A stretch of DNA of 47,423 nucleotides, taken from positions 1-47,423 of the IMG/VR virus record IMGVR_UViG_3300002307_000077; one strand, written 5' to 3'. The notes under the pieces are model-generated. The model searched no databases. It was not told the DNA's origin and worked only from the letters and a program-made list of their open reading frames with translations. Positions 9,852-36,008 of the stretch are shown piece after piece. A program made the translations under genes and the position numbers. How positions within the stretch are numbered: the stretch's first letter is position 1; each line of letters starts with the position of its first letter. Source of the stretch: a virus (lineage: Duplodnaviria; Caudoviricetes).

Positions 9852-9852
9852 C

Positions 9853-10203: not shown

Positions 10204-10210
10204 GGTTTTA

Positions 10211-10828: not shown

Positions 10829-10835
10829 GGACACA

Positions 10836-11327
10836 ATGGCAGAGGAAACTAAGGTTCGAACTGGTACACCCGAAGATATTCATGGGATGATGGATTTAGC
10901 ATTGCAGGCTTGCGAAGAAAATGGCCTGACAAATCCCAACCCTGAAAAGCTGCTCAATCAGATTTGGGCTGCTCTGAATCAAGAACACGGTATTGTCGGT
11001 ATTATTGGTAAATATGGACAACCGCTTGAAGCTGCTATATTACTTAGAACAGAGGCATTGTGGTATTCGGACGAATTTTCTCTCGTCGAACGGGCAGTTT
11101 TTGTACACCCGGAGTATCGCAGTGCTAAAGGCGGAAGGGCGCGGAAATTGTGCGAGTTTGCAAAAAAAGCCGCCGAGTCATTAGATATTCCGTTAATTAT
11201 AGGCGTATTAAGTTCTGATCGTACTGAGTCAAAAGTTCGGATGTATGAGAGACTTTTCGGTGAATATTCAGGTGCTTACTGGATTGTAGGCCGGAGAACT
11301 GGCACTTGGAAAGCTGCTGCGGAGTAA
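10836..11327 (+). CDS. GNAT-fold protein in tail module
   Basis: VFVHPEYRSAKGGRARKL resembles the acetyl-CoA binding motif A. Confidence 0.7.
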   Translation: MAEETKVRTGTPEDIHGMMDLALQACEENGLTNPNPEKLLNQIWAALNQEHGIVGIIGKYGQPLEAAILLRTEALWYSDEFSLVERAVFVHPEYRSAKGGRARKLCEFAKKAAESLDIPLIIGVLSSDRTESKVRMYERLFGEYSGAYWIVGRRTGTWKAAAE

Positions 11328-11332
11328 CATAG

Positions 11333-11470
11333 ATGGGCCATAGGGTTTGCTCAAAATGTAAGACTAACAAACCTCTGACTGAGTTTCGTAAAGACTCGCC
11401 TGCATTTGAAAATCTCAGCAAGAAAAACAAATTTCCTGAAGAATATCAGCACCTTGCGTGGGGGATTTAA
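11333..11470 (+). pseudogene. Internally deleted HNH homing endonuclease remnant (45 aa, absent from ORF track)
   Basis: Manual translation MGHRVCSKCKTNKPLTEFRKDSPAFENLSKKNKFPEEYQHLAWGI joins an N-terminal CxxC..KPLxEF motif to a C-terminal PA.ENLSK.NK motif; no HNH core. Confidence 0.6.
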
Positions 11471-11472
11471 TT

Positions 11473-14400
11473 ATGGGGGGAAAGACCAGTACATCAACCC
11501 AATCGGTGCAAATCCCGCCGGAAGTTCTGGCTCGATATAATGCTGTCAATAAACGCGCCGAAGAAGCTGCCTCCCAGCCTTTTCAAGAATATTCAAACGA
11601 TCCAAATGCGTTTGTCGCCCCTATAAATACTACTCAGCAGACCGGCATTAACCAGACTCTTAATGCGTCCCAGCAAGCACAGCCCTATTTTGGCGCTGCT
11701 ACTGGAATGACTGCTGCTGGTTCTGGAGCTGTTAACCCTGACCAGCTTCAAACTGCTCAATATATGAATCCATATACCCAGAATGTGGTGGATGCTACAA
11801 CTGCTGCTCTTCAACAACAGCAGGGCCAGCAACTTTCCCAACAACAAACACAAGCTATCAAGTCTGGCGCATTTGGCGGGAACCGTTCTGGATTGGAGAG
11901 GGCTGTTCTGCAAGGTCAGCAAGGTCTAGCTACAGCTCAAGCCATTTCTCCATTATATCAACGTGGCTATGAACAGGCTCTAGCCACAGCACAACAGCAA
12001 CAGGGCGTAAATTTAAGCGCTCAACAAGCTAACCAAGCTCGGCTTTTGCAAGGTGGTCAGCAACTGGCTGGGTTGGGTGCTGCCGCACAAACCGCTGGTT
12101 TGCAGGGTGCAAATGCTTTGCAACAAGCTGGCGCAACTCAGCAACAGACAACTCAAGCTGGTCTAGGCGCTCTCTACAATCAATGGCTACAGAAGCAAGG
12201 CTACCCCTATCAACAGGCTCAGTTCTTGGCAAATATTGCGGAAGGTACTGGTTCTCTGTCTGGGAGCACAACTACTACTAATCAGCCAGCTCCTTTCTTT
12301 GGATCTGATCGTCGCCTTAAGCATGACGTTAAGCGTATCGGTGAGACTGATAAGGGCCTGCCAATCTACAGCTTTAAGTATAAAGACGATCCCGAAGAGC
12401 AGACCCGCATTGGCTTTATGGCTGATGAAGTTGAGAAACGACATCCAGAAGATGTCGGCCTTTCTGGCGGTTACAAGACAGTTAATTATGAAGGTGTGGC
12501 AGACAAAGAAAGCCGCCCTCATCGTTACGATGGCGGTCTAGTCCCCGACTCTGCTGGCGGTGCTGTTATGCCAGAAATGTCAGGCGAGGGTTATGCTGAA
12601 GGTGGCATGGCTGGCGCTAGTGATTTTGTGCCTCCAATGCGTAGCATCTTTGGTAATCCCGGAGCTGGTGGCAATGCTGGGTTGGCGCAGGTCTTGGCTG
12701 CACAGCAAGGTAGCGGCCAACGCAAGTTAATGATGCCATCTCAAGGTTTGAAGCCGATTACACCAGAATTTAACCAATTGCTTGGCGCTGGTCAGCAGGT
12801 TGCTGATCTCGGTGGATTGGCTGGTAAGGGCTGGGATACCGGCAAGTCTGCGTTACTTGGCTCAGAAGCATATAAAGACTCTAAAACTGGTAAAGATATA
12901 GCCGCAACAACTGGCCTTATTGGCTCTGGCGGTTCATCTGATAATGCTGGTTATTTGAAGAAAATCTTTGGCAGTAGCCCCGGAATGGCTGGAGGAGGCG
13001 GTGTGAATCCTTACTCCATCTCAGACGATCCAATGGCGGATGTTGTTAAAGAAGGCGAGGAAAAGAAGCACGAGCTGATGAAGCCTAATCAAGCACCCGG
13101 CGCTCCTCCTAGCCCATTTAGCCAAATTATGGGCGGTGTTGGCGCTGCCACAAGTTTGGCAAAGGCTGGCACTACAGCAATGGAAGGGCTGGAAGCTCTT
13201 GGCGAGTTCTTGCCTATGCTTCTTCTTGCCAACGGCGGCGTTGCAGGTGGTCGTAAGCATTATGACGATGGTGGAGATGTTCCTCCAGAAACCGTGCCTC
13301 CGATGGATTATCGGTCTATGTTAGTCAATTCAGCTAAGAAAGCTGGGATTGATCCTGATAATTATGTAAGAGTTGCTCAAGCTGAAAGTTCGTTACGCCC
13401 ACGTTCTGGCGATGATGGATCATCTGGTGGCATTCTTCAATTCCATGTCGGTGATGTTTCTGAAAAGTATCCTCACGCTGGTTTGGGTAATGCAATATTT
13501 AAGGATGTATATCCCGAATTGGATAAATCGTTATCACCGCAAGAAAAAGTCAAATGGCTTAATGCGCCCGAAAATCAACAAGCTCTTTCTGATTATGGAG
13601 CGCAACATATAGCTAAAAACGGCTATGGAGCATGGACTACAGCGCGGCAAATGGGCCTTGCGGGCGGTCGCGGCTCTCGATCTGAGGCTTCTGCTCCTTC
13701 TAAGGGCGGCTTCAGCGGGATAAGCGCACCTGATACATTTAATAATCAACCTCAAGGTTGGGGTGATTTCCTGACAAGTAAGCAGTTTGTATTGCCGTTG
13801 CTTTCAGGTCTTGGGAAGATGGCTGGATCAAATAGCCGTTATCTAGGTTCGGCTGTGTTGCAGGGTTTGGGTGGAGCTGCTGAGTCTTACGAAAACCTAC
13901 AAAACCAAACTTCGCAGATTCAACTTCGTCAGTCTGAAATTGCCAAAAATACACTCGGCATGTTGAAAGATAGGTTTATCCCTATCCCGACAGGAACTGG
14001 CCAGCCTGCGTGGCGCGATACCATGACTGGTAAAATCCTTAATCAAGCTCAATTTGCTGCTGCAATGAGCGGGGCGGCTAGTGCAATGGGGAATGCTACT
14101 AATGTTCCTTACGCATCACCAGTTAGTACCAAAGACCCGATACAGATTGCGGGATCAACATCACCCGGCACAAATGCTGTAGCGAAATCTGGCGAAGACA
14201 TAATGAAGGCAAGTGGCGTTACGCCTGAGTCTGCTAAAAACACAGCTCCACCGCCGGATGCTTTTGCTAACGTAGCTGATGAATTTAACCCCTATTTGCT
14301 TACGCAGAAAGCTGAACAATATCGCAGGCTTTCAGAAGAAGCTCGTACTCTTGGTAAGGATAACCAATCGACTGGTTATTTGTCTGAGGCTGAAAAGTAC

Positions 14401-15246
14401 GAACAAAAAATTGAAAAAATTATGAAAGGTGATTTGCCTGTATTGGACAAAAACAATCAGCCTACTGTCATCAAAGAAATTCAAGAAAATATTAATCGTA
14501 AAAATGCGGATGCGGATTTTGCTAAATCAATGGCAACTCAACGTGGCGAATTTGCTAAAGCCGCAGATCAATATCTAGAAGAATTTGACCCGCAGCTTCA
14601 AATAATTATGGACTTATCACGAATTTACCAAATGGGTGAATTGGGTCGCGGATCTGAGGCTATTGCAGATCTGATAGGTTATGCCAGAAGAGTTCCATAT
14701 ATTGGCGAAATTCTTAAAGATAAGTTACCTGATCTTGTTGCATCACAATCTCTTAGTGACCAATCTAAAAAAGAATCTCTTACAATGGCGTTCAAAACCA
14801 TTAGGGAGGCTCAAGCCCAACGCGCTCCTGCTACAGCTTTGAAGGAAGCCGTGATGACAGTTGCGAATCCTGAAATGGCTCCTGAAGCTCGCTGGGGTCT
14901 CTTAACGAGCCAGCTTGGTCAGGAATTGTGGAAAAAAGCTCAAAATGAAGATTGGATTAATGCTGGAAGGCCGAATCATTCAAAATACCTTATTGATTGG
15001 AAGAAAGATCCTAAACATTCAATCGACAATTATGTAGAACAAGCTCGTAAAATGATCCCTGAATTTAAGGGTGTCACACCTACTGAGAGGCAAAATCGCC
15101 GTCCGTTAGGAAATGAAGGGCAACAACAACAGACATCTGTGCCTACTGTGACACCACAAATGGATCAGCAAGCCATTCAATGGGCTAAACAGCATCCGAC
15201 AGACCCGAAAGCCATTCAAATCTTGAAAGCAAATGGGGTTCAATAA
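11473..15246 (+). CDS. Large DNA ejection (internal virion) protein with internal S74-like domain and lysozyme/SLT-like domain
   Basis: Gln/Ala-rich N-terminus (YMNPY, GAFGG); GSDRRLKHDV...GFMADEVE...YKTVNY; AKKAGIDP...AQAESS...GILQF; ATG 11473 preferred. Confidence 0.8.
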   Translation: MGGKTSTSTQSVQIPPEVLARYNAVNKRAEEAASQPFQEYSNDPNAFVAPINTTQQTGINQTLNASQQAQPYFGAATGMTAAGSGAVNPDQLQTAQYMNPYTQNVVDATTAALQQQQGQQLSQQQTQAIKSGAFGGNRSGLERAVLQGQQGLATAQAISPLYQRGYEQALATAQQQQGVNLSAQQANQARLLQGGQQLAGLGAAAQTAGLQGANALQQAGATQQQTTQAGLGALYNQWLQKQGYPYQQAQFLANIAEGTGSLSGSTTTTNQPAPFFGSDRRLKHDVKRIGETDKGLPIYSFKYKDDPEEQTRIGFMADEVEKRHPEDVGLSGGYKTVNYEGVADKESRPHRYDGGLVPDSAGGAVMPEMSGEGYAEGGMAGASDFVPPMRSIFGNPGAGGNAGLAQVLAAQQGSGQRKLMMPSQGLKPITPEFNQLLGAGQQVADLGGLAGKGWDTGKSALLGSEAYKDSKTGKDIAATTGLIGSGGSSDNAGYLKKIFGSSPGMAGGGGVNPYSISDDPMADVVKEGEEKKHELMKPNQAPGAPPSPFSQIMGGVGAATSLAKAGTTAMEGLEALGEFLPMLLLANGGVAGGRKHYDDGGDVPPETVPPMDYRSMLVNSAKKAGIDPDNYVRVAQAESSLRPRSGDDGSSGGILQFHVGDVSEKYPHAGLGNAIFKDVYPELDKSLSPQEKVKWLNAPENQQALSDYGAQHIAKNGYGAWTTARQMGLAGGRGSRSEASAPSKGGFSGISAPDTFNNQPQGWGDFLTSKQFVLPLLSGLGKMAGSNSRYLGSAVLQGLGGAAESYENLQNQTSQIQLRQSEIAKNTLGMLKDRFIPIPTGTGQPAWRDTMTGKILNQAQFAAAMSGAASAMGNATNVPYASPVSTKDPIQIAGSTSPGTNAVAKSGEDIMKASGVTPESAKNTAPPPDAFANVADEFNPYLLTQKAEQYRRLSEEARTLGKDNQSTGYLSEAEKYEQKIEKIMKGDLPVLDKNNQPTVIKEIQENINRKNADADFAKSMATQRGEFAKAADQYLEEFDPQLQIIMDLSRIYQMGELGRGSEAIADLIGYARRVPYIGEILKDKLPDLVASQSLSDQSKKESLTMAFKTIREAQAQRAPATALKEAVMTVANPEMAPEARWGLLTSQLGQELWKKAQNEDWINAGRPNHSKYLIDWKKDPKHSIDNYVEQARKMIPEFKGVTPTERQNRRPLGNEGQQQQTSVPTVTPQMDQQAIQWAKQHPTDPKAIQILKANGVQ

Positions 15247-17612
15247 TGGACTTTGATCCTGATGCTTATCTTGCTCAAAAGGTAGGTAACACACCTGCCT
15301 CTGCGTCCAACGCGCCACCTGCCTTTGACCCAGATGCTTATCTGGCTCAGAAGATGGGTGGTAAACCATCTGCGCCAACGCCAGAGCAAGAGCATGAGGC
15401 CAATGTTGCCAAATATGCTGATGATGCTAAGAGATTCCATAATGAATTTCCATTAGAATCTGCACTCCCTAGCCTTCAATTGCCTATTATCAGCGATATA
15501 GCAAAAAAAGGTTCAGCATTTGTTTCCTCTTTAGTTCCGGGGAGCGAAGATAGATATGGCGCAACTCAAGGCGAGAGATACAAGAACATTTCTGCTCGTC
15601 AAGATGCTATAGAGCGGGAGCGTAAAGCAAGGCAGTCTGGTTTGTCATCGGCACTTGAGACAGCCGGTAATGTTGCTGGTTCTGTTGCTTTGACACCTGC
15701 TTTAGGCATTGAAGCTGCTGCTACAAGGGTATTACCTAATCTAGCTGGGCGCGTCTTGGGTGCGGCTGGTGAGGGTGCGGCATATTCTACGGCTGAACAT
15801 TTAGCGTCTGCACCTGCTGAAAAATCCGTTGGCAAAACATTGTCTGAGCTTCCGGGCGCGGCAGCTCAAGGCGCTTTGTTTGGTGCTGCTGCTGTGCCTG
15901 TTGGAGCTGCTATCGGTAAGGTTGGAGAAAAATCAAAAAGCGCATACAATTTTCTGTTCAATCCAGAAGAATATGCAGCTCAAAAACTGGCTACTGCGGC
16001 CAGAGAGGCTGCGCCAAATGCTCCCGGATTAAAGACGGGGGAAGCTGGGTATTTGGCTGAAGTCGGCGCTCCTGTAAGTGTTGCTGATGTTAGAGGCGTC
16101 AAGCCTGTTATAGAAAAAGCTGCGGCTATCTCACCGGAGAGTCAACACTTAGCTGAGATAAATCAATCTCTTAAAGATAGATTGCAAGAAAGCTCTCAGA
16201 CATTTCAAAATATTCTTGATAACTCTTATTCATCTCTTGTCGGCAAAGTTAATGCAAAAATAGATCCTGTTGCAGTTAAGAGAGAAGCTAGAGACGAGGC
16301 AATTAGTGTTAATAAGCCTGCTTATTTAGCGGCTTATAACGCCCCTGCTGCACAAAATATGTGGACACCAGAACTGCAAAATTTTGTTAACACAGAAGCA
16401 GGACAAAAGGCTGTCAAATTTGCAGTGGAGAACTCTAAACTAAGTGCGTTTGCAAAGGGTAATACTCCACAGAGAAATCCATTTATCAAGGATGATAATG
16501 GGATCTATGTGCTAAACCCTAGATCTGCACCGCCAAATCTTGAATTTTGGGATCAAGCTAAACGTGGCTTAAACGATCAAGTTTCCAGCTTGTATAGATC
16601 TGGTGACAATGGTGCAGCTAAAGTGGCGCGTGATGCCCAAGAAACTTTTACACAGCATCTGAAAGATGTAGTCCCGCAGTATCAAAATGCTCTGTCTGGC
16701 GCAAAGAGATATATAGATCAGGACAATGCTTTTGATGCAGGTATGGATTTCTTCCGTCTGGCAGATACAAGCACAAAAACAGACCCGTTAAAGCTGCGTA
16801 AACAAATTGAGTATTTCCAAACTCCTACTAATCAAGGTGGATATACACAAAAAGAAAAAGAAATGTTTAATCAGGGGCTTATCTCATACATTAAGGATAA
16901 CCCTATACAAGCTGCAAAAGTTTTCTCCAAAGCAGATGCAGTAACAATGAATAATCTATCGTCTGTTATGGAACCAGAACTATTGAAGGCCGCTTACACG
17001 GCTTCTCAAGTTAGTCGGCTGTCTGCGCTTACCCAAGAGATAAAAGTTAAAGAATCAAAAGGCTTGATAAAAAAACTAGGTGCTGGTGCTGGTTTATTCT
17101 TTCTTGCCTTAGCAGAACATCCAATTGAAAGCATACAGTATCTCTTTCAAAGCCAGCTTACTTCTGCTGGAACTACTCTTGGTGGTTTGGCTCTTCTTGG
17201 CGGCAAATTGGGGTATAATAAATTACAAATTGCCAGAGCTAATCGCATTTTAGAAATGGCAGCATCAACGGACCCCAGAATTATTAAGAAGTTGCATAGC
17301 GATGTATTGGGAAACCCCGAAGAGCAAAACCTTCTTCAGAATATGGAAACTGGTCTGCAAAGGTGGGTTCTTTATTCAAGAGAAAATGCTGGCGGGTTAG
17401 CTCGATATATGGGTACAGTAGCTGGTCAGGCGAACGGCGGTCGCATTGAGCGCAAATCTGGCGGTCGTATTAGCCCAGCCTCTAAAGCTGATAGGTTGAT
17501 CTTGGCCGCAGAGAAGGCTAAAAAGTACATCAATAAACATACAGAGGCGCTACTCAACGAGCCGGATGCCACTATAGTTCATGCTCTATCAATCGCTAAA
17601 AAGGCCATCTGA
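15246..17612 (+). CDS. DNA ejection (internal virion) protein
   Basis: FDPDAYLAQK twice at N-terminus, Ala/Gly-rich hydrophobic segments, follows the large ejection protein. Confidence 0.7.
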   Translation: MDFDPDAYLAQKVGNTPASASNAPPAFDPDAYLAQKMGGKPSAPTPEQEHEANVAKYADDAKRFHNEFPLESALPSLQLPIISDIAKKGSAFVSSLVPGSEDRYGATQGERYKNISARQDAIERERKARQSGLSSALETAGNVAGSVALTPALGIEAAATRVLPNLAGRVLGAAGEGAAYSTAEHLASAPAEKSVGKTLSELPGAAAQGALFGAAAVPVGAAIGKVGEKSKSAYNFLFNPEEYAAQKLATAAREAAPNAPGLKTGEAGYLAEVGAPVSVADVRGVKPVIEKAAAISPESQHLAEINQSLKDRLQESSQTFQNILDNSYSSLVGKVNAKIDPVAVKREARDEAISVNKPAYLAAYNAPAAQNMWTPELQNFVNTEAGQKAVKFAVENSKLSAFAKGNTPQRNPFIKDDNGIYVLNPRSAPPNLEFWDQAKRGLNDQVSSLYRSGDNGAAKVARDAQETFTQHLKDVVPQYQNALSGAKRYIDQDNAFDAGMDFFRLADTSTKTDPLKLRKQIEYFQTPTNQGGYTQKEKEMFNQGLISYIKDNPIQAAKVFSKADAVTMNNLSSVMEPELLKAAYTASQVSRLSALTQEIKVKESKGLIKKLGAGAGLFFLALAEHPIESIQYLFQSQLTSAGTTLGGLALLGGKLGYNKLQIARANRILEMAASTDPRIIKKLHSDVLGNPEEQNLLQNMETGLQRWVLYSRENAGGLARYMGTVAGQANGGRIERKSGGRISPASKADRLILAAEKAKKYINKHTEALLNEPDATIVHALSIAKKAI
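15887..16000 (+). repeat. 114-bp repeat, copy 1 (inverted relative to 28661-28774)
   Basis: Direct alignment to the reverse complement of 28661-28774: 111/114 identical. Confidence 0.97.
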
Positions 17613-17614
17613 AC

Positions 17615-19048
17615 ATGACAACGACAACAAACAAAAGTTTGAACGAACCTGCGATTGGCTCTTCTAGCTGGGGCGGTCCACTTAACGATAATTTTACATA
17701 TCTAGATGCTGCGTTGGGGTCTAGCACATCTCTTTCACTGACATCTGCTACATTAACTGTGTCGCAGTATCGCTCGCTGGTTTTGAGTGTTAGCGGAGCC
17801 AACAGTGCAGCCATTGTATATACAATTCCGGCTGGAGTTGGCGGTCAGTGGATTGTTAGCAACCAAACAACAGGCACTGGCACAATTACCGTCATACAAA
17901 GCGGCATTGGCGTTGCCTGCACGAATGGTAAGCATACGCTCGTCTATGCTAACGGCTCTGGCGTCTATACGGCGGATGACTGGCAGAGCGGTGGCGGTGG
18001 GGGTGGCGGATCTCCCGGCGGCTCAACAAATTCAATCCAATATAATACCAGTGGTACTTTTGGCGGCAGTGCCAATTTTACATATGATGGTACAAATGTT
18101 AACCAGATTGGCTCCACAAACGCCGAGTTGAAATATACAATCAATAACCAGCTTACAGGCGCTAGCGTTGCTTCGTCTTTGTATCTTACTGCTGGAACTG
18201 TTGGATCAGGGATTTACGGGTCGCTGTCCACTTGGAATAATAGTGGCACAAACTCCTACATGCAGCTATCTGGCAGCTCCGCTGTTGCCACTATCAATCA
18301 TGGTTTTACTACCCATAATTTCTATGCCTTGAACCTTTCGACACCATATGCACAGATTGGTACGGCAGGTCTTAAACTTGGCTCTTCATTAGCTCTCAAT
18401 ATTTATCATGATGGGTCTAATGCTTATTACACCACATCTACGGGTGATACGACATTCTCATCGCCCAACGCATCGCTGATTAAGTTTGTCAGCGCACCAT
18501 CTGGGGCACAACGTGCTACGTTAGATCCCAATGGTAATTTCTGTGCTGGTAATATTCCATCTCAAGCATCATCTGGCATCTATTCGTCCATTGCTGCTTC
18601 TGGTGTGTTCAACCGTGCTGGCGCTACAGGCACTCTTGGTAGCACAGTTTACAACATTGAGTTCTTAGGCGGCTCAAACTGTCATCTGTGGGTCGGTAAT
18701 AGCGACTTCGGTCAGATCTCGACAACATCTGACTATCGTTTGAAGAAAGACGTTACAACAACAATTATTCCAGCTTTGGACCGTGTTAATCGTCTGCGTC
18801 CAGTCAACTACGCATTTAAATATGACAGCATCCCCCGTGAAGGTTTTATCGCTCACGAAGTGCAGGAAGTCATCCCATCTGCGGTATCATACAACAAAGA
18901 TGATATTGCATCTGACGGAAAGATTCAGCCACAGTCACTGAATATTGCGCCTCTTGTCGCTGTATTGACAAAAGCTATACAGGAACTCAGCGCGGAAGTG
19001 TCTGCGCTGAGTAAAGAACTTGATGCTGTTAAGTCTAAGCTGCCTTGA
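17615..19048 (+). CDS. Tail fibre with C-terminal peptidase S74 chaperone
   Basis: N-terminal WGGPLNDNF anchor, poly-Gly hinge, SDYRLKKDV, GFIAHEVQEVIP, terminal coiled coil. Confidence 0.85.
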   Translation: MTTTTNKSLNEPAIGSSSWGGPLNDNFTYLDAALGSSTSLSLTSATLTVSQYRSLVLSVSGANSAAIVYTIPAGVGGQWIVSNQTTGTGTITVIQSGIGVACTNGKHTLVYANGSGVYTADDWQSGGGGGGGSPGGSTNSIQYNTSGTFGGSANFTYDGTNVNQIGSTNAELKYTINNQLTGASVASSLYLTAGTVGSGIYGSLSTWNNSGTNSYMQLSGSSAVATINHGFTTHNFYALNLSTPYAQIGTAGLKLGSSLALNIYHDGSNAYYTTSTGDTTFSSPNASLIKFVSAPSGAQRATLDPNGNFCAGNIPSQASSGIYSSIAASGVFNRAGATGTLGSTVYNIEFLGGSNCHLWVGNSDFGQISTTSDYRLKKDVTTTIIPALDRVNRLRPVNYAFKYDSIPREGFIAHEVQEVIPSAVSYNKDDIASDGKIQPQSLNIAPLVAVLTKAIQELSAEVSALSKELDAVKSKLP

Positions 19049-19571
19049 TCTGCGGTTTCTTAAACGGTGCAGGGTGGTAGCAAAGACTGTAATGGTATGG
19101 GCACATAGATGCTCTATGAATTTTTGCACCGCAGTATAGTGTATCTGCGTCATCTACTTCACCAATGATATACCTACAGCTATCAATCTTTAGATCCGTT
19201 ATATAAATAGGATCATTGGTTGGAGGTATTAGCGGTTCCATTACCATGCGCTTCTCCCTAAGTGGGAATGGAATTGTTTTACCTTTAAGTTTATGTTTGT
19301 TGTTAATACTTTGTTCTTGCTGTGATTTTTGCATCCTATTCAGCTCAACTTTACGTTCTTCTTTTCGTTGAAAATAAATAGAACGTCTAGTTTCTTTAGG
19401 TATAACTTTTGGTTTTATATCTACCCATCCAGCAGCCCTAGCTCTTCCTACGCGGCCAATGACTGCATTCCTTGTTATATGTAATACCCTACCTATTTCA
19501 GTTGCTGTGCTACCTTCGTTCCACATTTTCAAAATAAGATCTAAATCTTCTTTTTTAGCCTTATCAACCAT
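19035..19571 (-). CDS. gcrA: GcrA cell-cycle regulator homologue
   Basis: N-terminal LKMWNEGSTATEIG...TRNAVIGRV.R HTH and C-terminal L...CRY.IG......YCG......CPYH...CY. Confidence 0.88.
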   Translation of the reverse strand: MVDKAKKEDLDLILKMWNEGSTATEIGRVLHITRNAVIGRVGRARAAGWVDIKPKVIPKETRRSIYFQRKEERKVELNRMQKSQQEQSINNKHKLKGKTIPFPLREKRMVMEPLIPPTNDPIYITDLKIDSCRYIIGEVDDADTLYCGAKIHRASMCPYHYSLCYHPAPFKKPQIKAA

Positions 19572-19606
19572 ATTGCCTTATCCCCCTTATGTGTTACCTT
19601 TGAATT

Positions 19607-19640
19607 TCTCTTAAAGCTACCGTCTTCGCGCTTTAAGAGA
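19607..19640. other. 11-bp stem-loop upstream of gcrA
   Basis: TCTCTTAAAGC (19607-19617) pairs with GCTTTAAGAGA (19630-19640). Confidence 0.6.
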
Positions 19641-19651
19641 GTCCCCCACTT

Positions 19652-19690
19652 AACCCGGTAGTGTGCCAATGGCTCTACCGGGTTCTTTTC
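19652..19690 (+). terminator. Probable intrinsic terminator
   Basis: AACCCGGTAG / CTACCGGGTT 10-bp stem followed by CTTTTC on + strand. Confidence 0.55.
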
Positions 19691-20287
19691 TTACCAATAG
19701 TGTAGTGATCCAATCCAGCTAGGGATCTTCGCGTTAACAGCCATTTTAATATATTGCTGGCGATAGCGCTCTGCTTTGCGTGTCAGACGTTTATTGAATG
19801 GGCTTCCAGACACATGGCAGGACGCAAATTGAGAAGATGTTCTCGCACCCAGTTGGACGCATCTCTCCATATGCCTGATGCCAGCCTCGATCTGAGCGGT
19901 GCAGGATGAGTTTAACTCATATGCAGTGATACCCAAGCTCTCAGCACTACCTACAAGTACCTGTAGAGGCCCCACAGCGCGTCCGTGACGGGTCTTAGGG
20001 CCTTTGACATGGCAAGTGTAGCCAGACTCAATTTTAGCGATCTTAAGGGCAGGTTCTACCCATTCTTGGCCGATACGAGATCGCACCTTATCCGCAATCT
20101 CTGTGGCAACTTGTTTTTGGGTTTTCGACATTGTGTCAGTCCAACTTAAATCAATATCAACATTTTTCCCCCATCCAGCTTTGTCTCTGCGAAAGAAGAT
20201 TGCTGCGTTGTCATCACCCTCAAAAGCCATTGTAGCAATGGACATAGTTAAGATTGATGCAATCGTAGGGATGATTACATTCTTCAT
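19691..20287 (-). CDS. Secreted lytic transglycosylase (SLT-like)
   Basis: Signal-peptide-like MKNVIIPTIASILTMSIATMA; IAKIESG catalytic Glu motif; AVGPLQV; IEAGIRHM. Confidence 0.78.
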   Translation of the reverse strand: MKNVIIPTIASILTMSIATMAFEGDDNAAIFFRRDKAGWGKNVDIDLSWTDTMSKTQKQVATEIADKVRSRIGQEWVEPALKIAKIESGYTCHVKGPKTRHGRAVGPLQVLVGSAESLGITAYELNSSCTAQIEAGIRHMERCVQLGARTSSQFASCHVSGSPFNKRLTRKAERYRQQYIKMAVNAKIPSWIGSLHYW

Positions 20288-20392
20288 GCGGTATCCTTTC
20301 AAAATGTGGGCGCTTTGCTAGAGCGCATCTCTCTCCATAAGATCATCAGGTTGATGATGGCTTATTGTTTCACATGAATCTGAGTAAGGCAA

Positions 20393-20596
20393 TCATTCGG
20401 CTTTTGATGGTCTGCCAAATGACACATTCGGTTGAGCCTTGATCTTTGGATTAGGCCAAGTCCAGCATTCACCGTTGCTGTCATTTAGACAGATCCACAT
20501 CAGATCATATTCTGGCCCATAATCAATCCACCCAATCGCCATCGCTTTCCCATCCGGCGTTATTACTGGGATTGGCGGATTCAACTGTAACAGCAT
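20393..20596 (-). CDS. Hypothetical phage protein
   Basis: LQLNPPIPV.TPDG...IDYG...W...GECWTW pattern; start uncertain (20596 or 20605). Confidence 0.7.
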   Translation of the reverse strand: MLLQLNPPIPVITPDGKAMAIGWIDYGPEYDLMWICLNDSNGECWTWPNPKIKAQPNVSFGRPSKAE

Positions 20597-21005
20597 TTTG
20601 TTCATCCAATACACGTTGATGACGTCTTACGCCATGCAGGATTGACGAATGGTCGTAAGGTTCCGCTGGTCTGCATATGCGCCCGATTTGATTGTATGTT
20701 AGGCCGCACTGCTTCAATGTCCACCAAATCTCATTTCGCACAAGACTTGGAATCCTATATCTTTTGTCATTAAACACTTCGTCCCATTCTAAGTTTTTCT
20801 GTGCTAAAATTTCATCAATTACAAGTTGATGTTTTGTTCTATACGCTGGGTTTTTGATTCTCTTCAATGGTTGCGGCGGCTCTTTCGAGGTAATTGTCAT
20901 CGTGGGCCTCACATATGCAAATGGTTTAGGTTTTTCCCTACCTAATCTTTCGCTGACTTTCTCATAAGATTTGAACAGTTTTTGCTGATAATTGCTATAT
21001 GACAT
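20523..21005 (-). CDS. Protein with DnaA domain IV-like (Bac_DnaA_C) HTH
   Basis: R.EIWW.L...GLTY.QIGR......DHSSILHGVRR matches the DnaA C-terminal signature. Confidence 0.75.
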   Translation of the reverse strand: MSYSNYQQKLFKSYEKVSERLGREKPKPFAYVRPTMTITSKEPPQPLKRIKNPAYRTKHQLVIDEILAQKNLEWDEVFNDKRYRIPSLVRNEIWWTLKQCGLTYNQIGRICRPAEPYDHSSILHGVRRHQRVLDEQNAVTVESANPSNNAGWESDGDWVD

Positions 21006-21007
21006 TA

Positions 21008-21205
21008 TTACTCACCTTCTACATTTAACACTTTGCTAATTTTGCTTCTAACATCTGTTGCTGACCAACAATCGCATTTGCTATAAATATCTTTAAGAAG
21101 TTCTGCCATCTCTTCAATGCGATCAGCGGATTCTGAAGCAAGGCTCCAACGCAAAACCGTCTCTGGGTCTTCAGCCCGCAGCCGCTTCACAAGATCGTCC
21201 ATCAT
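21008..21205 (-). CDS. Array mini-gene (modules C + degenerate B)
   Basis: MMDDLVKRLR start; ADRIEE. Confidence 0.75.
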   Translation of the reverse strand: MMDDLVKRLRAEDPETVLRWSLASESADRIEEMAELLKDIYSKCDCWSATDVRSKISKVLNVEGE

Positions 21206-21644
21206 CTTTCCCCTCCAGTGCTTTGCGGGCGTTTAGATTGATGTGAAACACCAAATCTACGAGAGATTTGATAGAAACGTTGCCCTCTGGGTTTTTGAAA
21301 GGGTGAATGTCGATTATCTCCCGCAGCGCCGCCTCTAACTGTTCGATGCGGCTGGCTTGTTCTGCGCACTTTTCGTCGATGATCTTGACGTACTCACTAT
21401 CAGACATGACCGACAGGCGTAGCTTTTCTAATGTTTGATTATACAATTTGCCCCATTTGTTTCTTGATTTAATTAGCCGCTTTACTTCCGCCTCCAGCTT
21501 CTCGATGCGGTCGGCGGCTTGTTTTTCAAAAATAATATTTAAGCTTTTTAAACCCATTCTTTCAACAGCCAAACCAATCTCGTAGTCATACTTCTTATTG
21601 TTTTCTATGTAGGCGGTAAATATCTTCCCAAGACCATTAGTCAT
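21171..21644 (-). CDS. Array mini-gene (B, B, A), 157 aa
   Basis: True start MTNGL at 21644 behind the GGAGG of the connector; ADRIEKLEA, SRIEQLEAALREIID, ARKALEGKDD. Confidence 0.75.
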   Translation of the reverse strand: MTNGLGKIFTAYIENNKKYDYEIGLAVERMGLKSLNIIFEKQAADRIEKLEAEVKRLIKSRNKWGKLYNQTLEKLRLSVMSDSEYVKIIDEKCAEQASRIEQLEAALREIIDIHPFKNPEGNVSIKSLVDLVFHINLNARKALEGKDDGRSCEAAAG

Positions 21645-21879
21645 CTTTCCCCTCCAGTGCTTTGCGGGTAACGCCAACCATTTCTATCAACAACCTCAGC
21701 AAGTAGCCTTCAGCTGCCGTCATTGGCTCAGGTATGCCTTCAGACCCTGCATATACCTCATAAATCTCCCGCAGCGCCGCCTCCAACTGCTCGATGCGGG
21801 CTTCTAATTTGGCAACGTGTCCTGCACGACGCATTGCCTCAAGCGTGTCTGGGTGGATAACTGTATAACGATCAATCAT
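21637..21879 (-). CDS. Array mini-gene (B, A)
   Basis: ARIEQLEAALREI; RKALEGKDD. Confidence 0.75.
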   Translation of the reverse strand: MIDRYTVIHPDTLEAMRRAGHVAKLEARIEQLEAALREIYEVYAGSEGIPEPMTAAEGYLLRLLIEMVGVTRKALEGKDD

Positions 21880-22076
21880 TTCGGAACCTCTAGTTTTGCT
21901 TCCTGCATCATTTGTGCAATTTGGTAGGCCAGTTGAGGCTCAAGCCTGAAATATATTACCTTCCCATCTTTATCTTTCAGATTTCGAGCGGCCATCATGA
22001 GCCATTCGGCCAGTTCCTCAGTGTTTTTAGGCTTGTAACTTGAGAGAAGTGACATTGGGCTTTTAGGCGGGATCAT
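21876..22076 (-). CDS. Hypothetical protein (66 aa)
   Basis: Coupled start/stop overlaps on both sides. Confidence 0.65.
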   Translation of the reverse strand: MIPPKSPMSLLSSYKPKNTEELAEWLMMAARNLKDKDGKVIYFRLEPQLAYQIAQMMQEAKLEVPK

Positions 22077-22357
22077 TACTTGTCTCCTTTATTAGGATTC
22101 CAATCTGGAAGATTCAGATCATCTCTTACAATGTTTGTAATATACCCAACTACATACCATCGTTTTCCATTATTATGTTCAGCCATTAAATGCCATCTGT
22201 CACCATATGGCCCAATGCTAAATTGATAAAAATCGTCGTCGTCACCCCATTGTTTTACAAAATCAATGTTAAGCAACTCCTCAAAAGTTTTGAAGTTTTG
22301 CGTCGCAGGATCAAATCCAGACACAAAGTTTGGTATGTGCTGCTTAATCGTCCCCAT
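22076..22357 (-). CDS. Hypothetical protein (93 aa)
   Basis: TGATG overlap with upstream gene; aromatic-rich. Confidence 0.7.
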   Translation of the reverse strand: MGTIKQHIPNFVSGFDPATQNFKTFEELLNIDFVKQWGDDDDFYQFSIGPYGDRWHLMAEHNNGKRWYVVGYITNIVRDDLNLPDWNPNKGDK

Positions 22358-22656
22358 CACTCATCCCCCTTCTTAGGCGGTGGCGGAAGTGGCATCCAGT
22401 GGGTGGGAACTACAGCGGAACGATGATACTCAGATGTCCATGTCATTCCATTTGTTGCCCAGCGCATAGCAAGAACCCACTGCCCGTTACTTCCAATGAT
22501 TGCCCCAATATCTTTTGGCGCGTTCTCTATAGGTTGCCATCCTGAGTCGATTATCTCCCGCAGCGCCGCCTCCAGCTTCTCAATGCGGTCACGATCAACG
22601 GCTTTTTGGCGCAACATTTCATTGACTGCGCTTGCTATTGTTTCTGCTTCAGTCAT
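22357..22656 (-). CDS. Array mini-gene: module B fused to DUF551-like domain (99 aa)
   Basis: Start MTEAE at 22656; DRIEKLEAALREIID followed by GWQPIENAPKD...PTHWMPLPPPP. Confidence 0.8.
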   Translation of the reverse strand: MTEAETIASAVNEMLRQKAVDRDRIEKLEAALREIIDSGWQPIENAPKDIGAIIGSNGQWVLAMRWATNGMTWTSEYHRSAVVPTHWMPLPPPPKKGDE

Positions 22657-23020
22657 CCTTCCACTCCAGTGCTTTACGGGCGATAACAATTCGCTCAGAC
22701 AATATCTGCGCGATGTCGAACATGTTGGTCACGGAACTTGTTGACCATTCAGTCGTGTAGCCTTCTGCTACTTTTGCCAGCGCCGCCTCAAGCTCCTCGA
22801 TGCGGTCTTCGGCGTCGAGCATCCGAAGTTCAAAGCTCAGGGCCTTGCCAAGTTGTTCCGCGAAGTCCGCCTGTGTGTTCGCCAAATGCCTCCCCAACGC
22901 CTCAATTCGGTCGGCTGCTTCTTGCCTTTCACCCCACAATGTTACTCGCGCCTCACGTTGATACTGCCGATCTTCTGGCAATTCATCTGCGCGTAACCGC
23001 TTCACAAGATCGTCAGTCAT
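22649..23020 (-). CDS. Array mini-gene (C, B, B, A)
   Basis: MTDDLVKRLR; ADRIEAL; DRIEELEAAL; ARKALEWKDD. Confidence 0.78.
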   Translation of the reverse strand: MTDDLVKRLRADELPEDRQYQREARVTLWGERQEAADRIEALGRHLANTQADFAEQLGKALSFELRMLDAEDRIEELEAALAKVAEGYTTEWSTSSVTNMFDIAQILSERIVIARKALEWKDD

Positions 23021-23208
23021 TACTCATCCCCCTTCTTAGGCGGTGGTGGAAGCGGCATCCAATGGGTGGGATCGCGTTTCTCATAGGTTGTTTGCTCAAG
23101 CCACCACGTCGTTCCACAAAAAAACCCGATCAAAATATCATCGCCACAAAACACCAAAACGTTTATGTAATCTTTTGGCGCGGTCTCTATAGGTTGCCAT
23201 TCAGTCAT
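23020..23208 (-). CDS. DUF551-like protein (62 aa)
   Basis: MTEWQPIETAPKD...PTHWMPLPPPP; start at 23208 in the connector. Confidence 0.82.
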   Translation of the reverse strand: MTEWQPIETAPKDYINVLVFCGDDILIGFFCGTTWWLEQTTYEKRDPTHWMPLPPPPKKGDE

Positions 23209-23512
23209 CTTGCCCCTCCAGTGCTTTGCGGGCGATTTGTCTGGCTTCCCAAAGCATGTGGCGCGCGTAATCCAACTCAGGGACATCTGCATATGCATAG
23301 CTCGGGTTACCATCGTGAATGTGTGACAGCGCCTCCAGCGCCGCTTCCAGCTTCTCGATGCGGTCGGCTGTGACAGATGCAGCCGCAATCCAACAAGATT
23401 GACGATCTTCGCCAAGCTCATTCCATGTCCACAGTGGTTTGCCATCAATGGTTTTGCCGCCAGCCTGAATGGAATAGGCATTCCACATAAGTTTTGCGAT
23501 ATTTTCACTCAT
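23201..23512 (-). CDS. Array mini-gene (unique N-domain, B, A), 103 aa
   Basis: Start MSENI at 23512; ADRIEKLEAAL; ARKALEGQDD. Confidence 0.75.
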   Translation of the reverse strand: MSENIAKLMWNAYSIQAGGKTIDGKPLWTWNELGEDRQSCWIAAASVTADRIEKLEAALEALSHIHDGNPSYAYADVPELDYARHMLWEARQIARKALEGQDD

Positions 23513-23738
23513 CTTTTTTCTCCTCAACAAGAGCTGCAACCTTAATTTTCAAAAGATGTTCGTATGCCATCTCGCACTTCTCCGCATAGGAAAGGCCCAT
23601 CTCACTCAACATGCCAAGAGCAACTAGCAGCGCCGCCTCCAGCTGTTCGATGCGGTCGGCAGCTTCATAACGCAACGCCTGTTCATCTGCGCTAGTATGT
23701 ATGCCAATACGCAGCCGCCTCACAAGATCGTCAGTCAT
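23505..23738 (-). CDS. Array mini-gene (C, B), 77 aa
   Basis: MTDDLVRRLR at 23738; ADRIEQLEAAL. Confidence 0.75.
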   Translation of the reverse strand: MTDDLVRRLRIGIHTSADEQALRYEAADRIEQLEAALLVALGMLSEMGLSYAEKCEMAYEHLLKIKVAALVEEKKDE

Positions 23739-24045
23739 CTTTCTTACCCTTCTTCCTTTCAACGATTGCCCTAAGCTTTTCAACGTACCAATCCCAACGG
23801 CACGATGCGCGATCCTTCAGGCTCTCTATCTTGTCTGCAATGAACAGTTCATGCCCATCAAGCAGGCGCTTGTTTAGCGCCATGATGGCAATGACTTCCC
23901 AATCTGCTTGGTCCTGTTTGGCTTGTTGCGCTGCAAGACGAACTCCGTCATTGATGCCTTTTATAGCCCATCCTATTGCATCCTCATCTTTCTCAATGGT
24001 GCGGCAAATATGAAGATAGAATTGAGCCTTTTCCTGTTCAGTCAT
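23731..24045 (-). CDS. Hypothetical protein
   Basis: Coupled; ends KKDD in an AAAGATGA junction. Confidence 0.7.
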   Translation of the reverse strand: MTEQEKAQFYLHICRTIEKDEDAIGWAIKGINDGVRLAAQQAKQDQADWEVIAIMALNKRLLDGHELFIADKIESLKDRASCRWDWYVEKLRAIVERKKGKKDD

Positions 24046-24386
24046 CACAGCCCGTCTCCTTCGGAAAAATCCAACTCAACCTGCACACACGCGATGCGAT
24101 ACCCCATAGCTTGTATGTCAGCTTTTCTCTTCTCTTGATAAACGAAAAAGCAATTATCTGGATAAACATTGATCCAAACCAGTTGCTTGATGCGCGGTTT
24201 GACTTCGATGATTTTAAACTCGCTGTAAACCGAAAAGCCATCGGAGTTCCAGCAATGACTTCGCCAAACTGGTTCGTGGAGGTCTTTAATTGCCCCATGT
24301 ACAGGAAAATCATCACCCCCATCAGTCGCATAGATGCGGACTTCGCGGCCATCGGGGGTGAGGTACTTTTTGGTCATGTCGATCAT
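24045..24386 (-). CDS. Hypothetical phage protein
   Basis: Y.T.DGREVRIYATDG...PVHGA; ATGA overlap. Confidence 0.72.
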   Translation of the reverse strand: MIDMTKKYLTPDGREVRIYATDGGDDFPVHGAIKDLHEPVWRSHCWNSDGFSVYSEFKIIEVKPRIKQLVWINVYPDNCFFVYQEKRKADIQAMGYRIACVQVELDFSEGDGL

Positions 24387-27611: not shown

Positions 27612-27862
27612 TAGAAAGGAATCTCATCATCAATGTTAGTCGGGCCTTTAGCCTCGACACGAGAGCGGGTTTGAGGCGATGCATCTTTCTGCTTAAAAGA
27701 GAACGAAAAAAACTTGCCTGTTTTGCCTTCTTTGATCCAAGCAGAGATCCAGTATTCTACGCCAGAGATAAGGGCTTTGCCATTATAGTCAGGGTGAGTG
27801 TCCAGCTCTTTGCGGTCATTCTTGAATAATGTACCCGTGTTGTCTCTAACTTCATATGCCAT
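27611..27862 (-). CDS. Small single-stranded DNA-binding protein
   Basis: GTLFKN..K....PDY.G......YWISAW; acidic DDEIPF tail; next to exonuclease and ERF. Confidence 0.72.
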   Translation of the reverse strand: MAYEVRDNTGTLFKNDRKELDTHPDYNGKALISGVEYWISAWIKEGKTGKFFSFSFKQKDASPQTRSRVEAKGPTNIDDEIPF

Positions 27863-28478
27863 TATATTGTTCTCCAAGTTTATTCAGTTTGTGTATTTTA
27901 TCGTTAAGCTCGTTGATGAACTTAACAACCTCTGCTTCCAGATCTGCAATCCTGCTATCGTCACGTTCGATGCGCTGGGTAAACAACGCAAGTTTCGGTG
28001 GGACGCGAGGGTCGAAGCTGATGAAATCACACCATTGCCTTCCAGTGCAAGCCATCTGCCACATCATTTGCGGAATGTATTTGTCTGGTATTTCTCCAGA
28101 CATTACAGTTTCCAGATGAGTGCTCGTGTTTGGACACTTGATCTCAATCAACCCGTCATCATCCACGAGCCCATCTGGACTGCATCCGCTGTTCTCAATG
28201 CTGGGGTGGGGAACAAACCCGATTGTCTGAACGAGATTACCGTGAAGGCCCTCATACACCTCACGAGCAGTCTTTTCATGGGCTGTCCCCCACTCCATCG
28301 CTGGCGTTTTGTATTTCTCGACGGGTAGCCCAGTAATACGTTCCACCAACAATTCTGACATATAGGTTGCCCGCAATGATGAATATCCATTGCGAGTCCT
28401 AGCTGAAAGATCTGCGACACGGCTAGCTGTCACCTTGCCGCATCTGGCATCGAACCACTCTTTAGAGCCCTGTTCCAT
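27852..28478 (-). CDS. YqaJ / lambda-exonuclease family protein
   Basis: QGS.EW...R.G.VTAS; MEWG..HE; SPDG; IEIKCP; Q..WQM. Confidence 0.92.
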   Translation of the reverse strand: MEQGSKEWFDARCGKVTASRVADLSARTRNGYSSLRATYMSELLVERITGLPVEKYKTPAMEWGTAHEKTAREVYEGLHGNLVQTIGFVPHPSIENSGCSPDGLVDDDGLIEIKCPNTSTHLETVMSGEIPDKYIPQMMWQMACTGRQWCDFISFDPRVPPKLALFTQRIERDDSRIADLEAEVVKFINELNDKIHKLNKLGEQYNGI

Positions 28479-28479
28479 G

Positions 28480-29268
28480 TCAGCCTTCCTGCTTTTCTTC
28501 GTCAGCCAGAACACCAGCCCGTTTCATGTCTGCAATGACATTGGAGTCAATTGAAACACGAACATTCTGAGGTAGTATAGACCACCAAGAACGAAGCGGG
28601 ATAGACCCTAATGCAGCTCTACTAAACCCTTCTGCGATAATATCATCAATGCTTTTATCAGCCACAGTAGCCAGTTTTTGAGCTGCATATTCTTCTGGAT
28701 TGAACAGAAAATTGTATGCGCTTTTTGATTTTTCTCCAACTTTACCGATAGCAGCTCCAATAGGCACAGCAGCATCAAACTCTGTGTCAGGCTTTGGCTT
28801 GGCGGGTGCTTTAGACTTCTCGCCCTTTTTAGGTGCTGACTCTGCAACGAAGTGGTTCGTTGCAAACTTTGCCTTATCTGGCTCAACAGCGGCATTACCA
28901 TCATCATCTTCAGTAGCGAGACACAGTAGTGACATAATGCCATAGCGCCTTGCATATGTGAGCGCAGAGCCGATGCCATGAGCATCTGCCTTCGCAATAG
29001 GAACCCATGTGGACGCCACCATGAATTGGCCGGAACTATGTAACAGCATTGTCTCCACAGATACGCCATTCTGTCCCACAGTCGGGAACTGTGTTAAGGC
29101 CAACTCATTTTCGGACAGCGGGTCTTTAATCGTGCTGCGTACTGATGATAGATCCGCGTACTTGGATTTAAAAAACGGATTCTGTGCATTCTTTGTAGCG
29201 TCTTGGATCGCACCTTGTGCCTTAGCTAATGCTCCAGCCAACTGGCCGATTTCTTCACTCATCTTCAT
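28480..29268 (-). CDS. erf: ERF-family ssDNA annealing recombinase carrying a 38-aa ejection-protein insert
   Basis: ALAKAQ, NPFFKSKYADL, GSALTYARRY, EDDDGNAA; insert at 28661-28774. Confidence 0.9.
   Translation of the reverse strand: MKMSEEIGQLAGALAKAQGAIQDATKNAQNPFFKSKYADLSSVRSTIKDPLSENELALTQFPTVGQNGVSVETMLLHSSGQFMVASTWVPIAKADAHGIGSALTYARRYGIMSLLCLATEDDDGNAAVEPDKAKFATNHFVAESAPKKGEKSKAPAKPKPDTEFDAAVPIGAAIGKVGEKSKSAYNFLFNPEEYAAQKLATVADKSIDDIIAEGFSRAALGSIPLRSWWSILPQNVRVSIDSNVIADMKRAGVLADEEKQEG
28661..28774 (-). repeat. 114-bp repeat, copy 2 (inside erf)
   Basis: Mismatches to copy 1 only at 28664, 28741 and 28761. Confidence 0.97.
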
Positions 29269-29269
29269 C

Positions 29270-29560
29270 TCAAAGGTTCCTTTCAATATATGACAAAATG
29301 TCATCCTCACAAGCATCGAATATTTTCTGATACATTACATCCGATGGCCCCGCTGTATAAGTTGATGGCGGTTCTTCATCATAGTCAAGCCAATATGTCA
29401 TTGGCCCCATTTCAAGTATTTCTGGGTATAAATTAGGTTCACCAACACTGCGATCACCGCGCAGCAGATCGTAACACACTTCGATGCTACCAGTTGCAAA
29501 GCGGCTAGACCCATCGACAGTAATTCGTAATTCGTCAAAACTGTATATCAAAGACTCCAT
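29270..29560 (-). CDS. Acidic hypothetical protein (96 aa)
   Basis: GGAG RBS before ATG 29560. Confidence 0.65.
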   Translation of the reverse strand: MESLIYSFDELRITVDGSSRFATGSIEVCYDLLRGDRSVGEPNLYPEILEMGPMTYWLDYDEEPPSTYTAGPSDVMYQKIFDACEDDILSYIERNL

Positions 29561-34756: not shown

Positions 34757-34778
34757 ATCTCAATCTCCATCATTTATT
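34712..34778. repeat. 67-bp direct repeat, copy 1 (RBS + first 15 codons)
   Basis: 63/67 identical to 35912-35978. Confidence 0.92.
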
Positions 34779-34797
34779 AATCTACCATCGAATAAAA

Positions 34798-35238: not shown

Positions 35239-35284
35239 TTCAATCTCCATCATTTGTTGATCGACCGATCATCGACCATGACTA

Positions 35285-35335: not shown

Positions 35336-35386
35336 ATGACCAAACCAAACGACCGCGTGAAATATGAATTCTAATAAAGATTAATA

Positions 35387-35978: not shown

Positions 35979-36008
35979 GATCGACCGACCAAAGCGACCG
36001 ACCAACCC

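Follow-up and report, generated by a model that had tools for sequence, protein, structure and literature searches.

The virus record IMGVR_UViG_3300002307_000077 (Duplodnaviria; Caudoviricetes), a 47.4-kb record with an estimated completeness of ~82% that was analysed over its full 47,423 nucleotides (nt) and is referred to here as the window, contains an array in which 11 coupled minus-strand genes reuse three in-frame DNA blocks: C at the gene start, B as an internal helix, and A at the gene end. The array and the reuse of its blocks were confirmed as real. The blocks are common to many phages, related and unrelated, and are not private to the window phage. The explanation that we consider probable is linker-based shuffling within coding sequence, in which the fixed blocks C, B, and A would be the sites of half-gene and whole-gene exchange between co-occurring phages, most likely by plain homologous recombination. 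At the level of sequence, comparisons among loci show where the breaks lie, that the blocks are conserved as DNA, that they are shared across phages, and that the cargo is under purifying selection.

Reused coding blocks in the array

The blocks, together with two further repeats of the DUF551 genes, lie at the following positions of the window.

21207-21233, 21646-21672, 22658-22684, 23210-23236, minus strand: block A, four copies
21176-21199, 22991-23014, 23709-23732, minus strand: block C, three copies
21324, 21483, 21772, 22561, 22778, 23336, 23628, minus strand: block B, seven strong copies
about 22894 and about 21106, minus strand: block B, two weak copies
22355-22408, 23018-23071: DUF551 end block D, two copies, 93% identical
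22510-22540, 23170-23200: DUF551 start block, two copies, 97% identical

The repeats are not due to chance, since the array span contains 160 direct 12-mer pairs versus a mean of 0.6 (maximum 4) in 200 shuffles; other 3-kb segments have a median of 0 and a maximum of 65. Block B is 33 nt long and encodes an 11-residue helix. Block A, as read from its sequence, has GGAGG at its end followed by an ATGA overlap, and thus combines a C-terminal peptide with the ribosome site and the start of the next gene. The genes are listed below, where x, y, and z denote variable pieces, lengths are in amino acids (aa), and handles beginning with L stand for other array-bearing loci.

21008..24386, minus strand: whole run of 12 small genes, closely packed or overlapping; 11 lie in the span first described (21008..24045), and one is the upstream anchor
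24045..24386, minus strand: upstream anchor gene, 113 aa, without a Pfam or PHROG family; in relatives, whose arrays differ, one or two homologs directly precede the array
23731..24045, minus strand: block-free passenger, 104 aa; a 93.7% copy occurs in L009 among other neighbours
23505..23738, minus strand: C-x-B-y gene, 77 aa, with C at 23709-23732 and B at 23628-23660
23201..23512, minus strand: x-B-y-A gene, 103 aa, with B at 23336-23368 and A at 23210-23236
23020..23208, minus strand: DUF551 gene (PF04448, E-value 6e-6) with start block 23170-23200 and end block D 23018-23071
22649..23020, minus strand: C-x-B(weak)-y-B-z-A gene, 123 aa
22357..22656, minus strand: x-B gene that continues in frame into a DUF551 domain, with B at 22561-22593, start block 22510-22540, and D at 22355-22408
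22076..22357, minus strand: block-free passenger, 93 aa; 86-87% copies in L021 and L027
21876..22076, minus strand: block-free passenger, 66 aa; 73-78% copies in L043, L055, and L068
21637..21879, minus strand: x-B-y-A gene, 80 aa, with B at 21772-21804 and A at 21646-21672
21171..21644, minus strand: x-B-y-B-z-A gene with B at 21483-21515 and 21324-21356 and A at 21207-21233; its stop at 21171 follows a read-through, and it overlaps the next gene by 35 nt
21008..21205, minus strand: C-x-B(weak)-y gene
20523..21005, minus strand: downstream anchor gene, 160 aa, 84-92% identical in close relatives with differing arrays

An earlier note on this DNA had located the blocks and described the gene architectures, and both were borne out. 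Its copy of B at 22898 proved to be weak and not full, all its other copies were recovered as strong ones, and the copy near 21110 was weak, as it had said. Both copies of its module D were found as well; the second DUF551 block, at the gene starts (22510-22540 and 23170-23200), had gone unnamed. PF04448 (DUF551) exceeded its curated cut-off of 22 in two of the 11 array genes, at 25.5 and 27.4 bits, and these two were the only array genes with matches or good scores in the Pfam and PHROG scan.

At fourfold sites, identity between loci reaches 0.72 in B and 0.69 in C, whereas the core genes, compared over the same pairs of loci (211, and 120 for C), have 0.44; the blocks are therefore kept as DNA and not as protein only. 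Compared with the codon usage of the respective loci, B and C are strongly biased: GCG-GCG reaches 87% and 86% versus about 30% expected, and CTT 94% versus 23%. The GC content at third codon positions (GC3) in the window is 0.77 for the blocks, 0.44 for the cargo, and 0.42 for the core genes, and that of B is 0.75 even in low-GC loci. Synonymous sites of the blocks, which the earlier note had suggested comparing with those elsewhere, are thus unsaturated in B and C. The likeness of B copies amounts to 0.695 between phages and 0.683 within one locus, a pattern that would fit re-import from a shared pool over homogenisation within a genome.

Conservation of this kind could also mark a DNA signal, that is, the target of a site-specific recombinase or nickase, a hairpin in single-stranded DNA or RNA, or a binding site, with shuffling programmed as in integrons. 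We regard this reading as quite improbable. In favour of it, a GC stem is predicted for the consensus of B, with −17.8 kcal/mol for the RNA and a mean z of about −1 relative to synonymous recodings, and the motif CTGGAGG is common to A and B, with seven of its eight minus-strand copies in the window located inside the array. Against a signal, 238 distinct B copies show neither covariation nor compensatory changes, pairing remains at about the level of independent columns, and the consensus fold of the alignment is empty, so that B as a conserved hairpin was rejected. Furthermore, breaks spread across the whole block, and no integrase or serine recombinase was present among 49 scanned window proteins, which comprised all array genes and their neighbours and not every open reading frame (ORF) of a genome that is ~82% complete. 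A Chi-like reading of GCTGGAGG was also discarded: its four minus-strand copies all lie in B-type sequence, and genome-wide enrichment was absent.

Sharing of the blocks among phages and exchange at their positions

The exact 28-nt pattern of A occurs in 85 IMG/VR stretches and the exact 30-nt pattern of B in 43. All 44 exact-pattern copies of B are in frame within ORFs and are flanked by 30 upstream and 34 downstream arm families. Merging of near-identical loci left 74 non-redundant loci, window included, with 243 B, 146 A, and 84 C copies at the protein level, at most four antisense matches, and no matches in the reversed control. The arrays of these loci adjoin terminase, helicase, or lysozyme genes, locus GC ranges from 37 to 63%, and the core genes of the other loci are only about 63–75% identical to those of the window. 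The basic architecture, C-x-B-y-A, was counted 45 times, and BA, B, CBBA, CB, and BBA occur as variants. With a profile of 40 array genes, 6,178 clusters (50% identity) were retrieved at an E-value of 0.001, some of the weak matches possibly being generic helices, and 606 at 1e-10. The 40 family members had no match in PHROGs and only scattered weak matches in Pfam. In lake metagenomes, the summed contig depth over the blocks, which is not a copy number, was 50–200 times that of the single-copy flank of the phage, and therefore points to many co-occurring carriers. The cultured marine roseophage CRP-831 has one C-x-B gene, and two weak DNA matches were obtained in the GenBank phage collection. 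No description of these blocks was found in the open-access literature, supplements being outside the search. The earlier note had described the library of a single phage, which underrated the scale, as the blocks are spread over many phages.

Breaks concentrate at the blocks. Among sharp alignment ends inside B-bearing genes of the 74 loci, 182 of 240 fell within −12/+48 nt of B versus 37% expected, the 5′ ends peaking at the start and the 3′ ends at the end of B; because the sites are not independent, p-values are overstated. These stricter counts supersede a first, lenient one (561 of 1,788 ends inside cargo). The arms on the two sides of B are largely unlinked: only 8 of 113 pairs that share the arm before B also share the arm after it (7 of 129 in the reverse direction), whereas linkage was kept in 13,206 of 18,147 pairs of the block-free anchor control (73% pooled, 54% per gene pair). 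Altogether, 238 B copies form 231 distinct joins. When 98 homologs of the 123-aa gene were pooled with the locus genes, one C-terminal half was combined with 41 families of N-terminal halves, one N-terminal half with 15 families of C-terminal halves, and six four-gamete sets were obtained. Searches with cargo DNA only, whose patterns drew on relatives already found, recovered four distinct genes with four N-terminal halves and eight (one truncated) with seven C-terminal halves, all of which switch at B.

The same holds for individual genes of the window. The N-terminal half of gene 21637-21879 is joined to seven different C-terminal halves across phages, and that of gene 23201-23512 is common to L009 and L023 up to B only. 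All three variable pieces of gene 22649-23020 occur elsewhere with other partners, and gene 21171-21644 has only its B-to-B piece in common with L083 (85%). In P0004, the front of gene 23505-23738 is naturally joined to the back of gene 22649-23020.

Four close relatives, which were found via the 160-aa flank gene at 20523-21005, have retained ~90% identity in their flanks and have different arrays. Upstream (243 nt) and downstream (2,479 nt) of one replaced piece, L092 and L093 agree at 98.8% and 99.7% of positions, respectively; the piece itself, 88 nt versus 67 nt long, starts within B, stops within A, and is their sole difference. L091 and L093 have a lone B-to-A piece in common (123 nt, 94%), L093 and L094 diverge at C, and L094 diverges from the window at the A/C joint. 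In gene 21008-21205, close relatives follow the window to the A/C junction at ~21210-21217 and then diverge; contigs of runs X5, X6, and X10 are 96–98% identical to the window until 21209-21210 and continue with other sequence. One X8 contig joins 24045 straight to 23734, with passenger 23731-24045 cleanly absent, and its match ends inside B. Joints in the contig runs were not scored as deletions, as they are mostly block pairs of other phages. Exchange bounded by the blocks is well supported by the alignments, in line with the earlier proposal that the blocks are in-frame crossover points: breaks concentrate in them, and close relatives differ by block-bounded swaps. Collinear and invariant arrays, randomly placed breakpoints, and saturated synonymous sites, the three outcomes that the earlier note had named as speaking against its claim, were not what we found.

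These comparisons rely on assembled contigs, and assemblers might jump between co-occurring phages at common blocks. Such an artefact could draw on the excess depth of the block DNA and the breaking of contigs at blocks, on exact runs of 31–39 nt in some block pairs, and on the fact that a single contig does not bridge every joint of the window. Nevertheless, we consider it very unlikely. Only 0–1.8% of the copy pairs between the window and other loci have at least 31 nt in common, difference-free contigs bridge 19500-21513, 22760-23199, and 23180-23788 (from runs that may be the source of the window), the common pieces are mostly 75–94% and not 100% identical, and identical joins recur in separate assemblies.

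Several points weigh against linker-based shuffling. The loci were picked by an exact match to A, which biases the statistics of A (B and C were unused in picking). Enrichment of breaks in the blocks is not confinement to them: over whole arrays, 39–41% of the sharp ends fall elsewhere than in blocks or at gene ends, versus 70% expected. All six four-gamete sets use one C-terminal half that was enriched by the protein search, and the loci alone contain no such set. Contrary to a strict block rule, L091 has a deletion at a microhomology of 7 nt that belongs to none of the blocks, and the duplicated anchor gene has internal exchanges as well. Two of nine complete array-bearing genomes lack all of five families of annealing or single-stranded DNA-binding proteins. 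The evidence consists of contig comparison, and the recombination event itself was not observed. Lastly, selection for intact helices would likewise concentrate surviving breaks at B.

This last point leads to a different explanation, in which illegitimate recombination is random, survivors are those that keep the B helix and the gene boundaries, and the blocks are protein motifs and translation signals instead of recombination substrates. It agrees with the position of B at a helix boundary in the structural model, the coincidence of A and C with gene ends, the GGAGG site in A, the ~40% of sharp ends outside blocks, and the microhomology deletion in L091. It fails to predict the fixed synonymous codons in B, namely the GCG-GCG frequencies and the high GC3 in low-GC loci given above, and the alignments of both partners continue through B before they diverge. 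On balance, we judge such a filter unlikely.

Linker-based shuffling would operate as follows. Through a crossover in B, the reading frame would be kept and front and back halves could be combined freely. Whole genes would be swapped by a crossover in A or C, with a ready-made stop, the GGAGG ribosome site, and an overlapping start supplied, and a double crossover would replace one piece. Exchange would take place during mixed infection, likely by ordinary homologous recombination using any annealing protein or host system that happens to be available and no dedicated recombinase, and the blocks would stay alike via repeated re-import by recombination from the community pool. B presumably forms a short coiled coil, and the small, predicted helical proteins would likely display variable loops to host targets. 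More tentatively, freshwater alphaproteobacterial phages of different kinds might have an open combinatorial library in common, community-wide and loosely comparable to V(D)J joining, whose coding linkers are under second-order selection and with which any co-infecting phage could plug short binding loops or whole counter-defence domains onto an oligomerising helix scaffold, yielding new inhibitors of host defences; this we consider possible and rather doubtful.

Two candidate recombination genes are encoded in the window.

27852..28514, minus strand: YqaJ exonuclease (E-value 3.5e-29), candidate partner of ERF
28480..29316, minus strand: ERF single-strand annealing protein (E-value 4e-23), candidate recombinase for the window phage only

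Both had been named in the earlier note, correctly as to their presence. As the driver of shuffling they were not supported, with ERF in only 5 of 27 array-bearing records and two of nine complete ones. The nine complete genomes encode ERF (two), AAA_24 (one), and an Enc34-type single-stranded DNA-binding protein (four), and neither RecT nor Rad52/Sak; we take AAA_24 to be Sak4-like and Enc34 to be gp2.5-like. With ERF in 5 of 27 carriers and mixed annealing families, the kit is therefore not tied to one recombinase. Separately, a 117-nt inverted duplication (96.6% identical) connects 15884-16000 (plus strand) with 28661-28777 (minus strand). It comprises 39 codons of a 788-aa virion-region gene, placed in frame in the C-terminal part of ERF, and has the appearance of sequence that the recombinase gene itself captured ectopically and recently.

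Products of the array and setting of the virus

The arms have a median length of 25–28 residues, and most pieces are 10–35 residues long. The 'effector domains' of the earlier note are therefore overstated: most cargo is a short loop, and whole domains are exceptional. The ratio of nonsynonymous to synonymous polymorphism (pN/pS) was 0.10 and 0.19 in two arm families, and the cargo is therefore under purifying selection; in two passenger genes the values were 0.03/0.18 and 0.08/0.43. The pair with L083 was out of frame and was dropped. In the AlphaFold model of P0002, which has a C-terminal half in common with the window, three helices are predicted, with B long and central (predicted local distance difference test score 76, predicted template modelling score 0.45).

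Recognisable cargo comes from other phages. In L021:5456-5917, two successive A blocks delimit a complete Dam adenine methylase (PF05869, E-value 2.5e-27), whose start is at the first A joint and whose in-frame end lies within the second. Among the best 120 of 173 longer homologs, 38 have a WDGH annotation; in the five that were inspected, WDGH lies between two B copies. P0274 contains a T7 gp5.9-like segment (PF25708, E-value 3.6e-11) in frame after B. In a further Pfam scan, 124 homologs had no match over the cut-off, and the families of 139 of 186 array-region ORFs were mainly those of flanking genes. The products of the array probably act on the host or its defences, the case for anti-defence resting on the Dam and gp5.9-like cargo. 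Counting against this role, the gp5.9-like case is one of 120 among the homologs listed, a PDB search with P0274 at an E-value of 0.1 did not return gp5.9, and the window genes had no match to an anti-defence or other functional family in Pfam, PHROG, PADLOC, and NCBIfam scans. The anti-defence role envisaged in the earlier note thus has two cargoes in other phages and none in the window. Weak PADLOC and NCBIfam matches (JetC, PDC-S28, Cas12a, SpiroCoCo; E-values 0.003–0.008) were discarded as generic helical, and a PDB match to the Bacillus NYN nuclease YacP (E-value 2.6e-4, one amphipathic helix) was judged to be due to chance.

A protein family scan of the window detected an SU10-type portal and adaptor, terminase, helicase, primase, RusA, ERF, YqaJ, and GcrA. 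Because GcrA is encoded, the host is likely alphaproteobacterial; a GcrA match is present in 16 of 27 other array-bearing records and above the cut-off in 11. The sequencing runs that contain the window stretch are freshwater metagenomes; no RNA run was listed among them, which does not bear on expression. None of five matches to bacterial genome contigs was used to assign a host: three contigs of metagenome-assembled genomes carry several blocks, have a phage-like gene neighbourhood, and are probably phage DNA caught in the binning, and the other two matches are lone stretches of 27–29 nt in Paenibacillaceae.

Some features lie outside or beside the arrays. The upstream anchor gene (24045-24386; also L091, L093, and L099) is found ahead of many arrays; relatives have it in tandem duplicate, and it is itself mosaic between the copies. 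A gene with a DnaA C-terminal-like helix-turn-helix is located beside the array in L006, L007, L019, L040, L049, L064, and L072, and window gene 20523-21005, which has no Pfam match, may be of the same kind. A Bax1-inhibitor family membrane protein (PF01027, E-value 2e-59) is encoded at L061:5026-5724, adjacent to the array of this 107-kb phage record. The structural region of the window (803-2789, 7473-19048) encodes a 2OG-Fe(II) oxygenase, a glycosyltransferase with TPR repeats, and three proteins with S74 chaperone domains. Few long ORFs exist in the region of 34712-34786, 35237-35355, and 35912-36080, where AT-rich repeats of 75–125 nt (79–92% identical) recur in direct orientation at dispersed positions; they are possibly promoter cassettes of a second variable region. 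At 45360-45632, a tandem duplication of ~140 nt (78% identical) lies within a 687-aa gene (44523-46586).

Comparison with known systems

Phage modular evolution has long been described by a linker model, whose documented cases, the promoter and stem-loop (PeSL) cassettes, shift whole genes at non-coding repeats; the 'boundary sequences' of lambdoid phages we take to be a parallel to the array blocks. New in the array are linkers within genes, with exact coordinates, that are common to many phages of one habitat. Whether linkers are selected, or breaks are random and then filtered by selection, can therefore be tested directly. In terms of viral dark matter, about 6,000 clusters without a Pfam or PHROG model would be recombinants of a small kit, and their clustering as separate families would therefore inflate novelty. 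The blocks are also usable as bait for mining, since the content between them has been captured and passed around, the recognisable cases including Dam, WDGH, and the gp5.9-like piece. Integrons and other site-specific cassettes are characterised by a dedicated recombinase beside the array and by covarying stems, and neither was found here, among the 49 scanned proteins and the 238 distinct B copies, respectively.

Erf of phage D3 mediates RecA-independent recombination of diverged substrates, those of 78% identity included (PMC3945230). Such relaxed, Rad52-like recombination resembles the present case in that short diverged homologies are exchanged and the window phage encodes ERF and YqaJ; it differs in being a general mechanism and not the design of a locus, and most array carriers lack ERF. 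A survey of domain mosaicism in phage proteins, whose sequence-based test needed fragments of at least 50 aa and which flagged accessory proteins of unknown role as unexplored, describes a similar, ongoing shuffling of fragments between phages (PMC10684548), whereas the pieces here are mostly 10–35 aa long and have defined DNA joints. The RecBCD inhibitor gp5.9 of T7 is small and acidic, forms a parallel coiled coil, and targets a hub of host defence (PMC9836394). The segment in P0274 resembles it, and B as a dimerising stem would be in line with its coiled coil; in contrast to gp5.9, the segment, a profile match, is one cargo in one homolog outside the window.

Lambdoid Ead/Ea22 and DUF551 proteins are mosaic, and Ea22 combines a single long coiled coil with a C-terminal domain that varies (PMC10834534). 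They resemble the array products in their small size and exchangeable ends, and perhaps in the coiled coil; DUF551 is portable and stands behind B in gene 22357-22656. In the array proteins, exchangeable ends were seen and a long central helix is predicted. Kinship with Ead/Ea22, which the earlier note had cited as mosaic genes, was not recovered, as PF13935 (Ead_Ea22) had no match in the genome at an E-value of 1 and none among the 40 family members; a cluster with 44% PF13935 was reached at an ESM feature score of 0.81, which is no more than a lead. In contrast to Ea22, the 11-residue helix is a two-sided joint that occurs up to nine times per array and has fixed synonymous sites.

In PeSL cassettes of T4-type phages, as in the Botstein-Campbell linker model, short conserved repeats serve as sites of homologous exchange among small non-essential genes (PMC2839356). 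Insertion, deletion, and replacement at such repeats without a dedicated recombinase correspond to the swaps between relatives met here. Promoter and terminator patterns in the array occurred at shuffle level and did not mark the blocks, so that an intergenic promoter and terminator of the PeSL type were not found. PeSLs consist of an intergenic promoter and stem-loop and move whole genes (PMC2839356), whereas the blocks of the array are translated, one of them lies in mid-gene, and half-genes are swapped in frame.

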